Below are positions 8,593 to 12,850 of a DNA stretch of 60,255 bases, piece after piece. How positions within the stretch are numbered: position 1 is the stretch's first letter; each line of letters begins with the position of its first letter. Below the pieces are notes generated by a model. The model saw only the letters and a program-made list of their open reading frames with translations. It had not been told where the DNA came from and made no database searches. Made by a program: the position numbers and the translations under genes. The DNA comes from Candidatus Faecimonas intestinavium (GTDB lineage Bacteria; Bacillota_I; Bacilli_A; RF39; UBA660). The stretch is taken from the NCBI GenBank assembly GCA_018716045.1, contig DVKL01000079.1:1-60255 (forward strand). The letters are read 5' to 3'.

Positions 8593-10827
8593 TTACATTT
8601 TCTCATGGAATGTTCTAGCAATAACTTCCTCTTGTTGCTTTCTAGTTAATTTATTAAAACGTACTGCATATCCAGAAACACGAATAGTAAGTAATGGATA
8701 TTTATCAGGATTGTTCATAGCATCTACTAACATTTCACGATTTAATACGTTAACGTTTAAGTGATGTGCTCCTTGAACAAAGTATCCATCCATTAAATTA
8801 ACTAAATTTTCTACTCTTTCTTCTTCAGTTTGTCCTAAAGCACTAGGTACAACAGAGAAGGTATTAGAAATACCATCACGGCAACAATTTGCCCAGTCTA
8901 ATTTAGCAACAGAGTTTAATGAAGCAATAGCACCACTTTGATCTCTTCCATGCATTGGATTAGCCCCTGGAGCAAAAGCAACACCAGCTTTTCTACCATC
9001 AGGAGTAGCACCAGTATTAGAACCATATACTACATTAGATGTAATAGTAAGTACTGATAATGTTGGATGAGCATTTCTATAGCAAGGATGAGAACTTAAT
9101 TCTTTATAGAATACATCTAATATTTCTTTTCCAATTTCATCTACTCTATCATCATCATTACCATATTTAGGGAAATCTCCTTCGATTTCAAAATCAACAG
9201 TGATTCCATCCTCATCACGAATTGGTTTAACTTTTGCATATTTAATTGCAGAAAGTGAATCTACTGCTACAGAGAAACCAGCAACACCATAAGCCATTAA
9301 ACGATTTACATAAGTATCATGTAATGCCATTTGTCCAGCTTCATAAGCATATTTATCATGCATGTAATGAATAATATTCATAGCATCAGAATAGATTCTA
9401 GCAACTTCATGCATCATTTTGAAGTAAGCATCTTTAACTTTATCATAGTCAAGTACTTCATCAGTCATCTTTTCAAATCCAGGAATAACTAATTCACGTT
9501 TAACTTCATCAACACCACCATTAATAGCATAAAGTAATGTCTTAGCTAAGTTACAACGAGCTCCAAAGAATTGCATATCTTTTCCAACACGCATAGCAGA
9601 TACACAACAAGCAATTGCGTAATCATCTCCCATGCTTGGACGCATAACATCATCATTTTCATATTGAATAGAATCTGTTGCAATACTAACTTTGGCACAA
9701 TATTTCTTCCAAGCCTCTGGTAAATTTTGAGCCCATAAAATAGTCATATTTGGTTCTGGAGCACTCTCTAAATTCTCTAATGTATGAACGATACGGAAAG
9801 AAGTCTTATTAACCATAGACTTACCTTCAGTGGTAACACCACCTAAAGAGCATGTTACCCAAGTTGGATCTCCAGAGAATAATTCATCATAATCAGGTGT
9901 TCTTAAATGACGAGCAGCTCTTAATTTAATAACAAAATGATCAATAATTTCTTGAGCTTCCTCTTCAGTTAAAGTACCATTCTTAAAATCTCTTTCAAAA
10001 TAAATATCAAAGAAGGCATCCACTCTACCTAAAGACATAGCAGCACCATTATCTTCTTTAATAGCTGCTAAATAACCAAAGTAAGTCCATTGAACTGCTT
10101 CTTTAGCATTTTTAGCTGGTAAAGAAATATCAAAACCATATCTTGCAGCCATATCTTTAATTTCTTTTAAAGCTTTATATTGCATAGAGATTTCTTCACG
10201 TAAACGGATAGTTTCATCATCCATTACTGTGATTTTCATATTATCCCAGTCACTCTTCTTTTGTTCCATTAAATAATCAATACCATAAAGAGCAATTCTA
10301 CGATAATCACCAATGATTCTTCCACGACCATAAGCATCAGGAAGACCAGTTAATAATTTATTATGACGAGCTTTTCTAATTTCGCTAGTATAAGCATCGA
10401 AAACTCCATCATTATGAGTTTTAACTAAATTAGTTCCTTTAATAAAATTTTCAAGAGCTTCATTCATTTTATATCCATAAGCTTTAAGCTCTTGATAAAC
10501 CATCTTTATTCCACCTTTAGGAACAATACTTCTCTTACCTAACTTATCAGTTTGAAGACCTACAATTACATCATCATCTTCACTAATATATCCAGGTTCA
10601 AAAGCATTAATTCCTGCTGGATGATCTACATCAATATCAATAACATGTTTTTTAACTTCTTCTTTACACATATCCTCATATACTTTTAAAACACGTTTTG
10701 TTTTTTCCGTAGGACCACTTAAAAATAATTCATCACCATCGTAAGCTACATAGTTTTTCTTAATGAAATCGCTAACATTAATTTCATTACACCATGCACC
10801 TTCTTTAAAATCTTTCCATTGTTCCAT
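8593..10827 (-). CDS. pflB: Formate C-acetyltransferase (pyruvate formate-lyase)
   Basis: Glycyl-radical motif [11 protein letters not shown] near the C-terminus and an active-site Cys pair (IACCVSAM). ATG 10827 (MEQWKDF...) is preferred because of SD GAAGGTGAT. Confidence 0.92.
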
Positions 10828-10952
10828 CAATCTATCACCTTCCCAAAACATATTATACCATAAACCATATAATTTTTATGCACATATTATTAAGTTTTGC
10901 ACAATTTTACATATAGATTTTTGTAAGAAAATATGATATACTCTATCTATCT

Positions 10953-11332
10953 GGGGCTGACACGGTTTCGACGGGAATAGTAGAGCATAGATGGCAAGTC
11001 GAATGTCCACGTCACGGGCACAAAAAAATAAACGCAAACAAAATTAAAAATGCAGTTGCTAACATGTTTGGTGGAAACCAAGCTGTAGCATTTGCCTAAT
11101 AATATAAAGGCCTGCGCTTTCTTTTATTTCTTACCTAGGAAATAATCGAAGGTTCATATTTTATAGGTTATAGCTATTTTCTTCCCAGAAAATAGAAAGA
11201 ATTAAAGGGATAATATATTATCTTGGTCGTTAACTACTTGGATAGTATATGAATGAAATTAGTTAACTAAACTTGTAGAAGTTTATGTAGCTCTATTTTC
11301 GGACAGGAGTTCGATTCTCCTCAGCTCCACCA
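10953..11332 (+). ncRNA. ssrA: tmRNA
   Basis: The 5' end is GGGGCUGACACGGUUUCGACGGG. The 3' tRNA-like end is GGACAGGAGUUCGAUUCUCCUCAGCUCCACCA. The internal tag frame 11034-11099 reads ANKIKNAVANMFGGNQAVAFA followed by TAA TAA. Confidence 0.93.
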
Positions 11333-11423
11333 GATTGATAATTGCTCGAACTGAGTTATATATAGAGGACTTGTCAAAAGTTCTTTTTTATGTTATTATG
11401 AATATGTCAAGGAAACTTGCATA

Positions 11424-11468
11424 AAATAAAAAAGAGGAACATTCGATTCCGAAAGCGAATGTCGCCTC
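11424..11468 (-). terminator. Intrinsic terminator of the small hydrophobic-peptide transcript
   Basis: Minus-strand RNA forms GAGGCGACAUUCG-loop-CGAAUGUUCCUC followed by UUUUUUAUUUUAU. The plus strand has no U-run after the same hairpin. Confidence 0.6.
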
Positions 11469-11510
11469 TAATAAAATTATGGTCGACACTCAATCAGAGA
11501 TGAAAGAGTG

Positions 11511-11603
11511 TCATATTTTTATTGCTATTACCAATAAGGTAAGGAGTAATAAAATGATAGCAATGTATCGAAGGACTTTTATAATAAAAGTTCTTTTCTT
11601 CAT
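11511..11603 (-). CDS. 30-aa hydrophobic peptide, candidate type I toxin
   Basis: Below the ORF-track size cut-off. The peptide is MKKRTFIIKVLRYIAIILLLLTLLVIAIKI with TGA stop. SD is AAAGGAGGG, 6 nt before the ATG. An upstream CCUCC (11636-11632) can pair with the SD. The unit has its own -35/-10 (TTGTTT-17-TATAAT, 11695-11667) and its own terminator. Confidence 0.5.
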   Translation of the reverse strand: MKKRTFIIKVLRYIAIILLLLTLLVIAIKI

Positions 11604-11747
11604 TTTTATCCCTCCTTTCTTTCTCAAGATTGGAGGACGACACCCACATCAAATGTTCCTGTTAAAATTATATAATAAATGGATTCATAAAACAATCGAA
11701 CAAGAAATGTTTTTGATAAATTTTCGAAAATGTATATTATAATTTGA

Positions 11748-11878
11748 ATAGTGATTGCTTCCTATATTAAATTGTTAATAAGTTGTAGATAACTTTCCCA
11801 ATGGCACCATAAAAAAAGTCGTTCACAAAGCTGAACTTGATATATAAGACCAATCAAAGTCGATTGGTCTTTATTTTT
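11748..11878 (+). ncRNA. Candidate small RNA (promoter-to-terminator unit without a credible ORF)
   Basis: Possible promoter TTGATA (11713-11718), 16-nt spacer, TATTAT (11735-11740). Plus-strand-specific terminator GACCAAUC-AAAGUC-GAUUGGUC followed by UUUAUUUUUAU (11848-11878). The only internal ATG opens a 3-codon ORF. Confidence 0.3.
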
Positions 11879-12111
11879 ATTTACAAAACACCATGATTTC
11901 TTCTATTTACAGCTATAAAAAAGAATATCAAAAATAAACTATACTATGACTATAAAATGAGAAAAATGAAAGACTAAAAGTCATAAAAACCGAAAATTTA
12001 ATATGGGTAATCTACATTGGAATTATTATTCTAAGTTGGTATGCAAACAGTAAAGAAAAACACTTTATACTTTATAAAGATAATAAAAGCAAAAAAGAAT
12101 ATCAAAAATTA

Positions 12112-12330
12112 ATGATTCTAATATTCTCTATCCTAGTAATTGCCTATTATTATTTTGCAAAAGATAGTCTAGAAGATTATCAAAAGTTAACACCTTTCGA
12201 CAGTAAAAAGAAAAGAAATCTCACTACTGCATCTCTAATAGCCTCTTTATTTATTTTGGTAAGTGGGCTAATTCTCTTAGGAATAGCCATAGAAGATGAT
12301 GATATTGATATAGAAATAGCCTTCAATTAA
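12112..12330 (+). CDS. Small membrane protein; the reading frame is open upstream to 11956 without a canonical start
   Basis: The 72-aa ORF has two TM helices. The same frame stays open for another 52 codons upstream and encodes a further TM helix (LIWVIYIGIIILSWY), but contains no ATG, GTG or TTG there. Confidence 0.4.
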   Translation: MILIFSILVIAYYYFAKDSLEDYQKLTPFDSKKKRNLTTASLIASLFILVSGLILLGIAIEDDDIDIEIAFN

Positions 12331-12403
12331 TACCATTAATCAATCTAATTGCTTTCTTTACAAAAAAGCTATATAATATACCACAACCTAAAGGAGAAAT
12401 AAT

Positions 12404-12850
12404 ATGAAAAAAATAAGCAATCTAAATATTCCCAAAGTAATTATTAAAAAGAAAGAAGCAAAAAAAGTATTCGGAAACTGGCTAGGAAAAACGATACCGC
12501 AAAATGAAATAGCAACAAAATTAGGATTTCTATTATATCAAACAGGTATTCCAAATACAGAAACATGTATTTTAGAACAAAACAAAGAAAATGAATTACA
12601 ATTTAATTGTCGTCTAAAAAAGCAAAAAAGAAATATCGGCATATCACTAATATTTGAAGATGTAGAAAACTTTGGAGACTTAATTATCTCAACAAAAGAA
12701 GAAATAAGAACTTATGAATATCATAAGCAAGAAAGCAAACTATTATTAAGAAACAGAAAGAAAATAAATGAATTAATAAAACCAAGTGAACAAGCACAAC
12801 TCCAAAAGCCATTGATAAAGCAGTATTCTAACCCTACTGGACAAAATTAA
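12404..12850 (+). CDS. Hypothetical Lys-rich protein
   Basis: 148-aa ORF with SD AAAGGAG 8 nt upstream. No recognisable motif. Confidence 0.5.
   Translation: MKKISNLNIPKVIIKKKEAKKVFGNWLGKTIPQNEIATKLGFLLYQTGIPNTETCILEQNKENELQFNCRLKKQKRNIGISLIFEDVENFGDLIISTKEEIRTYEYHKQESKLLLRNRKKINELIKPSEQAQLQKPLIKQYSNPTGQN

Follow-up and report, generated by a model that had tools for sequence, protein, structure and literature searches.

What does the DNA directly behind the transfer-messenger RNA (tmRNA) gene ssrA encode in Candidatus Faecimonas intestinavium? The window analysed here is the whole of contig DVKL01000079.1 (60,255 nt), an AT-rich contig (C26) of a 1.53-Mb metagenome-assembled genome (MAG) to which we give the label G000. 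A first-pass annotation had proposed a type I toxin–antitoxin (TA) locus at this place, with a gene for a small membrane peptide on the minus strand and a convergent antisense RNA on the plus strand. All the elements it listed are present, the sole error being an offset of 3 nt in the coordinates of one promoter, and each of its architectural claims is supported by comparison with related sequences. The locus is probably a working type I TA-like module, one of a family of such modules in uncultured gut Bacilli that is new and, in silico, well supported. We only infer that the two RNAs are produced, that RNase III or 5′-end decay acts on them, that there is any activation step and that the peptide is toxic.

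A peptide gene and a predicted convergent antisense unit behind ssrA

The peptide gene would be read on the minus strand from a promoter, TTGTTT (11695–11690) and TATAAT (11672–11667) at a spacing of 17 nt, that falls within a conserved motif referred to as P1 (TGTTCGATTGTTTT). The predicted mRNA of ~240 nt (11424–11662, its ends placed by promoter and terminator) contains a previously unannotated open reading frame (ORF) of 30 codons (11511–11603; ATG at 11603, TGA at 11513–11511). Its product, MKKRTFIIKVLRYIAIILLLLTLLVIAIKI, has a basic N-terminus (KKR), a single hydrophobic helix of ~20 residues and a K-I end. Upstream of the start codon, a Shine–Dalgarno (SD) sequence, GGAGG (11615–11611), faces an anti-SD CCUCC (11636–11632) in a hairpin (11611–11636) that folds at −12.2 kcal/mol (z-score −2.65). 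The transcript would end at an intrinsic terminator (11421–11469), comprising a stem at 11469–11433 and a U-run at 11432–11421 (−14.3 kcal/mol, z −3.8). Read on the minus strand, this stem is followed by UUUUUUAUUUUAU; on the plus strand, the same hairpin (11433–11469) is followed by AAUAAAAUU, not by a U-run, which agrees with the strong minus-specific terminator that the first-pass annotation had called, as it had the promoter, the SD sequestration and the ORF. The gene has its own promoter, SD and terminator, and its product is, as in type I toxins, a hydrophobic peptide of membrane type with fewer than 60 residues.

On the plus strand, the putative antisense promoter (11371–11399) consists of TTGTCA (11371–11376) and TATTAT (11394–11399) separated by 17 nt; the earlier placement at 11374–11402 was 3 nt too high, and it had overlooked the TG at 11391–11392 that makes this an extended −10 element (TGtTATTAT). 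The predicted antisense RNA of about 115 nt would run from about 11406 to 11521, with ends deduced in the same way. When folded as a 120-nt RNA (11404–11523), it forms three hairpins at −32.6 kcal/mol (z −4.5). Stem-loop 1 (SL1, 11408–11419; CAAG-GAAA-CUUG) is followed by an A-rich linker, SL2 (11433–11469) is the complement of the mRNA terminator, and SL3 (11485–11512; GACACUC...GAGUGUC, −13.0 kcal/mol, z −3.85) is a terminator with a U-run at 11513–11523, the hairpin being followed by AUAUUUUUAUU. A consensus terminator scan missed the terminators of both units owing to a bulge and long loops, and they were thus folded directly.

Each RNA hence has a separate, strand-specific terminator. The antisense RNA is perfectly complementary to the mRNA over 98 nt (11424–11521), covering its 3′ untranslated region (UTR), the terminator and the last 3–4 codons, just as had been predicted. 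At the level of sequence, then, the antisense gene has a promoter and a terminator of its own together with complementarity to its putative target. The convergent 3′-overlap layout that the first-pass annotation had likened to TxpA/RatA and BsrG/SR4 recurs in all five of the peptide classes described in the next section.

A family of modules in uncultured gut Bacilli

Is this arrangement peculiar to one contig? Of 20 genomes of the genus, 13 have a conserved copy of the locus, and another genus gave 18 matches. In an alignment of 13 loci, conservation extends to the ORF, the SD with its anti-SD, and the promoters and terminators of both units, and it is highest at the start of the antisense unit. 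A marker pattern taken from this start (TTTTTATTTTATGCAAG-N3-6-CTTG) matched at least 120 contigs of MAGs from uncultured gut 'Bacilli/Tenericutes/Mycoplasma sp.', and the related set comprises 158 distinct modules in 140 loci. Across the order, 113 of 301 genomes, representing 61 of 127 genera, carry the marker motif at 1–10 copies each, with zero matches to a reversed control pattern. In 25 other families of the class, none of 137 genomes has the motif, and phage records, plasmid records and IMG/VR contigs held no match to the family.

An SD-led hydrophobic ORF of 24–30 codons lies 152–186 nt upstream of the motif in 107 of the 158 modules. These ORFs group into five peptide classes of one common design, beginning with MKKRTFIIKVL (class A, to which the window copy belongs), MKKKDLLISFL (class B), MTKREFSLFII (class C), MSKKDFLILSL (class D) and MRKSEKYLCTII (class E). 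None of the peptides occurs as an exact match in a collection of 15 billion predicted proteins. The share of synonymous changes among single-base codon differences is 0.46–0.71 as compared to 0.23 expected, a coding signature seen in all classes; third codon positions vary most, with positions 1 and 3 about equal in class E. The tblastn search for the peptide family that had been suggested for the window copy, run independently of the motif, yielded 141 peptide-like loci, 135 of which carry the antisense motif downstream. The other six comprise one locus cut by a contig end, two with a diverged motif, two with broken ORFs and a single true exception. The ORF start in the window (11556–11610) is a near-palindrome (GAACUUUUAUUAUAAAAGUCC) with a hairpin just after the start codon; in tblastn, this palindrome makes the other strand match the peptide spuriously, as its mirror image.

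Might the real gene instead be an 87-codon ORF on the plus strand (11479–11742), with the minus peptide as its shadow? It is the longest ORF in the interval. It has no SD, however, its length in relatives ranges from 53 to 98 codons with frameshifts, and that strand carries no ORF reaching 40 codons in G024b, G017, G006, G009, G007 or the truncated G002 locus. What the relatives keep is the 30-codon minus ORF. We regard the chance of this reading as negligible and rejected the plus ORF as not conserved among relatives.

The antisense promoter demands closer scrutiny. In G000, its −35 element lies in the loop of the hairpin that now ends ssrA (11364–11389, plus strand; a cassette-borne hairpin plus U6, −7.8 kcal/mol, z −2.8), and its spacer is the U-run. 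There might, then, be no separate antisense RNA at all, the 'promoter' being the terminator's loop and U-run and the transcript being read-through from ssrA or a tRNA gene. The first-pass annotation had itself named such an identity as grounds for abandoning its proposal, and physically the overlap is real. Also in keeping with read-through, 51 of the 158 modules have a tRNA or tmRNA gene no more than 250 nt upstream, and 51/51 of these genes point the same way as the antisense unit. Moreover, one ORF-bearing module (L124, adjoining tRNA-Ala) has a tRNA gene directly upstream, 65 nt from SL1, and lacks the promoter.

Family-wide conservation speaks against read-through as the whole explanation. 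The pattern TGnTAnnnT stands at a fixed place in 149 of 158 modules, with TTGnnA 17 nt upstream in 131, and the extended −10 is kept in 106 of the 107 ORF-bearing modules, L124 being the only exception. Because TGnTAnnnT is likewise kept in 103 of 107 modules without a nearby tRNA or tmRNA gene (94 of them also with a −35 matching at least 4/6 positions), the antisense promoter is not a by-product of the ssrA terminator. TTGACA-17/18-TGnTATNAT is preserved in G024, G017 and G007 despite unrelated DNA upstream, and the conserved SL1 hairpin begins at the expected first bases of a transcript from this promoter. The terminator–promoter composite thus belongs to the cassette: it recurs in tRNA-adjacent and in many non-adjacent modules, and an apparent native ssrA terminator is found 477 bp further on. 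A read-through transcript as the only antisense RNA is, in our view, very improbable, and we favour an antisense unit with its own promoter. In L124, the sequence suggests that a tRNA 3′ trailer can serve as the antisense RNA. In another module, L074, the linker between tRNA-Leu and the antisense promoter holds five tandem copies of AAGCAAATATAA.

The three-hairpin layout of the antisense RNA recurs across the classes. SL1 is CAAG-loop-CUUG with stem-preserving variants, and SL3 with its U-run lies across the stop codon or the final codons in each class, so that the plus-strand hairpin and T-run reported for the window have counterparts at the same place throughout. The antisense strand gives the more stable SL2 in 65 modules (the sense strand in 21) and the more stable SL3 in 49 (versus 21); in these folding models, the asymmetry points to selection on an RNA from the antisense strand. 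When 43 antisense RNAs were aligned with MAFFT, RNAalifold recovered 8 SL2 pairs, 6 of them with compensatory changes. That alignment is crude, recovering only part of SL2 and misaligning SL1 and SL3 between classes, and per-sequence folding with strand comparison was used instead.

Decay of the modules is lopsided. Of the 43 modules that carry the motif but gave no ORF call, ~15 lack the ORF altogether and still have the 3′ hairpins and the antisense promoter; others show a lost start codon, in-frame stops or truncation. In all, about 30 or more motif-bearing modules have lost the ORF in one of these ways and yet retain the hairpins and the promoter, and the reverse, an ORF without the antisense unit, is almost absent. 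Within the genus, G016 and G006 are examples of ORF loss with the antisense unit retained. Such asymmetry is what a toxin–antitoxin pair predicts, and we take it as suggestive rather than decisive.

The promoters of the peptide genes come in more than one form. Of 95 modules, 71 have TATAAT as their −10 element, and several classes contain the P1 motif. A LexA-type box, [AG]AAC-N4-GTT[CT], sits between −35 and −10 in 34 of 95 toxin promoters from all five peptide classes (e.g., in L022, L040, L047, L051 and L074), as compared to about 0.0014 boxes per search window expected from background. The box ends 2 nt before the −10, at exactly this distance in 33 of 34 cases, and the same box (AAACAATTGTTCG or AAACATTTGTTTG) is found upstream of lexA and recA in G000 and G024 (L163, L164, L167, L168). 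These box-bearing (P2-type) members look to be under SOS (LexA) control. For the window copy, LexA control was considered and discarded, as its P1 promoter contains only a half-site-like TGTTCG, a conserved motif within TGTTCGATTGTTTT, and no full [AG]AAC-N4-GTT[CT] box.

A predicted mRNA lock and its likeness to known systems

How might the two RNAs interact? The mRNA region (251 nt) folds at −73.2 kcal/mol (z −5.8), with two features that could keep it silent. First, each of the five classes buries the SD in a hairpin whose sequence differs between classes, and the predicted probability that the SD is paired averages 0.75 in the family (0.81 for the window mRNA) as opposed to 0.45 in SD-bearing control genes of the same loci. 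Second, both arms of the 3′ terminator region have their complement in the first ~25–30 nt of the mRNA; in the window, this 5′ clamp comprises ~23 nt (AGGAACAUUUGAUGUGGGUGUCG, 11638–11660, minus strand) and pairs with both arms of 11433–11469 in the minimum free energy structure. The pairing is class-specific, at −32.0 kcal/mol with a module's own partner, −24 to −32 within the class and −17.3 with other classes. In 79 of 94 modules, the sense strand gives the better pairing, in which 230 G-U pairs occur, and this strand bias and these wobble pairs speak for a helix of RNA and against an inverted repeat of the DNA.

When the antisense-paired region was blocked in the model, pairing of the first 25 nt dropped from 0.81 to 0.54, and the SD remained paired at 0.81 in both states. 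In the model, then, the duplex frees the 5′ end from the 3′ terminator region but does not expose the SD, so that the antisense RNA would act mainly through destruction of the mRNA. By analogy with the B. subtilis systems, we thus favour control through duplex cleavage and loss of 5′-end protection over translational unmasking. A second antisense contact at the 5′ UTR, in the style of Fst or SprA1, was also considered and set aside: at −29.4 kcal/mol for own pairs and −25.0 across classes, it is about one standard deviation better and unconvincing.

Together, this suggests the following scheme. A sigma-A-type promoter on the minus strand would give the ~240-nt mRNA for a 30-residue, single-helix membrane peptide, and this mRNA would be translationally inert and compact, its SD buried by the anti-SD hairpin and the molecule closed by its first ~23 nt through the 3′ terminator region. 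From the convergent extended −10 promoter, a ~115-nt antisense RNA of three hairpins, complementary over 98 nt, would pair with the mRNA into a long duplex that might serve as a substrate for RNase III, as with RatA, SR4, SR5 and SR6. Should the antisense RNA fall, surviving or processed mRNA could be translated, and the peptide would enter the membrane and arrest growth.

The same architecture might serve a harmless small membrane protein, such as a modulator of a transporter or of the envelope, placed under cis-antisense control with no relation to TA systems. Purifying selection on the ORF fits any functional peptide, and many known toxins end in a polar C-terminal tail that these peptides do not have. 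But the family is multicopy and patchily distributed, forms tandem arrays and frequently loses the ORF while the antisense unit is kept; five interchangeable peptide classes share one regulatory chassis with an elaborate double lock on the mRNA, and there is never a conserved partner gene. These are traits typical of selfish TA cassettes, not of housekeeping micro-proteins. We therefore consider a harmless protein unlikely and prefer to see a type I TA-like module here.

Several points nonetheless weigh against that preference. In Pfam, NCBIfam and Rfam, no known type I toxin or antitoxin RNA is homologous in sequence to the peptides or the RNAs: Pfam gave no match to the peptide at E ≤ 10, including none to the Fst, Hok_Gef or AapA families, NCBIfam yielded noise only (weak MgtR/MacP-like matches to the transmembrane segment at noise level), and nothing but tmRNA was found in Rfam at E ≤ 1. 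The SD is buried in every modelled state, and none of these states accounts for translation of the peptide. The sequences are mutually related, so that the counts given here are not independent events. The loci were gathered by the motif of the antisense unit, which biases the number of cases with 'ORF lost, antisense kept', and the reverse check covers only the surroundings of motifs. Finally, hexamer matches alone are at chance level in such AT-rich DNA, with 9 promoter-like sites found in 10700–12500 and 10.5 expected from shuffles; the locus as a whole is above chance because every element is conserved at fixed positions in more than 100 related loci.

Which described systems come closest? 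In Bacillus subtilis, TxpA/RatA, BsrG/SR4, BsrE/SR5, BsrH/as-BsrH and YonT/SR6 likewise combine a convergent, 3′-overlapping antisense RNA with a small single-helix hydrophobic peptide and a partly or fully sequestered SD. Their mode of action, duplex formation and RNase III-dependent decay, is also the one expected here. These B. subtilis systems reside in prophages or the skin element, whereas the module described here is found at tRNA and tmRNA 3′ ends without a phage match. It shares no peptide or RNA sequence similarity with them and, unlike them, has a long 5′–3′ closing helix and an antitoxin 5′ part (promoter, SL1, A-rich linker) common to five unrelated-looking peptide classes. The layout of these Gram-positive families (TxpA/RatA, BsrG/SR4, BsrE/SR5, BsrH and YonT/SR6) has been summarised (PMC8594479).

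In hok/Sok of plasmid R1 and AapA1/IsoA1 of Helicobacter pylori, the full-length toxin mRNA is likewise closed between its 5′ and 3′ ends, a likeness in mechanism only. Fold-back inhibition of hok (Franch et al. 1997, as cited in PMC8594479) and the metastable and long-distance structures of AapA1 render the mRNA inert, and an activation step is needed (PMC6733600, PMC9841398). In both systems, the antisense RNA binds the 5′ region and 3′ trimming activates the mRNA, whereas here the antisense RNA would cover the 3′ partner of the clamp; both stem from a different phylum, and their families, Hok_Gef and AapA, have no match here. Fst/RNA II, encoded by par on pAD1 of Enterococcus, resembles the module in its convergence across a terminator region present in both RNAs, an SD-burying 5′ structure and a small membrane peptide. 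In par, one bidirectional terminator is shared and the decisive pairing takes place at 5′ direct repeats outside the overlap (PMC8594479). Here, by contrast, there are two strand-specific terminators and no match to Fst, and a second contact at the 5′ UTR is not supported.

The E. coli pairs tisB/istR-1, dinQ/agrB and symE/symR are SOS-controlled type I toxins, to which the 34 of 95 LexA-boxed members can be likened. Antitoxin position and toxin sequences differ, and the window copy, with its P1 promoter, has no box. To our knowledge, no described family combines an antisense RNA over the clamp's 3′ partner, an invariant front end for five toxin classes, two interchangeable toxin promoters and insertion at tRNA or tmRNA 3′ ends. 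Type I TA systems are known from few lineages, and homology searches are biased toward known families (PMC12390103, PMC8594479).

Apparent insertion at the 3′ ends of tRNA and tmRNA genes

How did the module come to lie behind ssrA? The tmRNA gene occupies 10953–11332 on the plus strand (ARAGORN; Rfam RF00023, 176 bits), and its CCA end is the insertion point of a 477-bp cassette (11333–11809) flanked by CACCA at 11328–11332, where ssrA ends, and at 11805–11809, the cassette's own end. The cassette starts directly after ...CTCCACCA of ssrA and ends in ...AATGGCACCA (11809). Similarity to loci of the same genus is limited to 11320/11328–11809/11817. The same cassette adjoins tRNA-Arg in G002, and it stands beside ssrA in none of the relatives; the flanks, when joined without it, resemble the relatives' empty sites. 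The cassette thus appears to have inserted at the CCA end of ssrA, bringing its own terminator and displacing the native one. An accessory origin had been proposed from the position next to tmRNA, and it is borne out by 14 other genomes of the genus, which carry different DNA after ssrA, none with the module there.

The probable native trailer and terminator of ssrA follow the cassette on the plus strand (11810–11880), with a hairpin (GTTCACAAAGCTGAAC), then TTGATATATA, and a terminator that the scan did find (11846–11871 plus T-run). When compared to the regions downstream of ssrA in G001 and G020, the DNA after 11809 has the same architecture and a CCAATC...GATTGG stem, at an identity of only 43–57% over ~90 nt. 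An apparent promoter-to-terminator unit without an ORF at 11713–11878 is accounted for by this displacement of the native ssrA terminator through cassette insertion; its promoter-like sequence on the plus strand, TTGATA-16-TATTAT (11713–11740), would transcribe across the distal cassette end and might thereby yield a small RNA resembling a tRNA or contribute to cassette insertion.

Could mobility, then, be the main function? The modules might chiefly be miniature mobile elements that target tRNA and tmRNA 3′ ends, with the 5′/3′ complementarity a DNA inverted repeat and the promoters and ORF secondary. The precise junction with the CCA end of ssrA and the CACCA at either flank would fit, as would the 51 of 158 modules located 3′ of tRNA or tmRNA genes, all co-oriented with the antisense unit; the modal distance from CCA end to motif is 104–106 nt. 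Some modules further show pseudo-tRNA ends and tandem accretion (arrays have a period of 388–588 nt), and many copies lie at contig ends. Yet the inverted repeat is internal to the conserved unit, not terminal, and pairs better as sense RNA with many G-U pairs, and the coding signature of the ORF together with conservation of both promoters and both strand-specific terminators is hard to square with passengers. We judge this reading improbable. Mobility and TA function are mutually compatible, which makes mobility more an added property of a TA-like module than a replacement for it.

A broader reading, which we put forward tentatively and would not expect to hold in every part, sees integrase-less miniature cassettes accreting at tRNA and tmRNA CCA ends as a 'plug-and-play' type I TA superfamily. 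Jointly, this would comprise a near-invariant antitoxin front end (terminator-embedded promoter, 5′ cap hairpin and A-rich linker) joined to at least five interchangeable toxin/3′-UTR bodies, each with its own 5′–3′ clamp, as well as a choice of two toxin promoters, interchangeable and in one case controlled by LexA (SOS). Co-oriented sites behind strong stable-RNA genes would add read-through transcription of the antitoxin as a safety margin.

If the family is what it seems, it would be a large new one, with hundreds of unannotated loci across a family-level lineage of uncultured gut Bacilli with small genomes. It would tie type I TA cassettes to insertion at tRNA and tmRNA 3′ ends, with a third of the members adding a link to an SOS-type operator, and it would account for unannotated 'empty' intergenic DNA and for contig breaks in these MAGs. 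Its five classes, two promoter types and many decayed copies would offer a ready-made covariation data set on 5′–3′ locking and on unlocking or destruction by 3′ antisense RNA.

Some smaller features of these sites deserve mention. The distal cassette end (AAGTTGTAGATAACTTTCCCAATGGCACCA, 11780–11809, plus strand) ends like a tRNA 3′ end and contains a small T-arm-like hairpin (AAGTT-GTAGAT-AACTT); in relatives, this element directly precedes the GATTGATA linker of the neighbouring module. As a universal cassette end, the pseudo-tRNA element was rejected, for it lies beyond the peptide promoter in only ~5 of 96 modules and is hence subtype-specific. The DNA after ssrA differs in each of the 14 genomes of the same genus (L170–L185), all of which keep a palindromic hairpin (GTTCGAAC/TTCGAAC-like arms), an ATATATA stretch and a terminator; by its sequence, the ssrA 3′ flank is a probable recombination hot spot with a conserved trailer architecture. 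Elsewhere in G000, contig C76 carries an orphan antisense front end behind a tRNA cluster (L002 507–583, 94% identical), which has the terminator, the promoter and SL1 and no toxin ORF. Beside it, a 43-nt perfect inverted repeat (GGCAGCCCGAGAATGTCATTTTTTTCGCGCGAACTCGAGGTGC; L002 1–43 and 380–422) surrounds ~340 nt of AT-rich DNA at the contig end, a stretch that could be an insertion replacing the toxin part or an assembly artefact.

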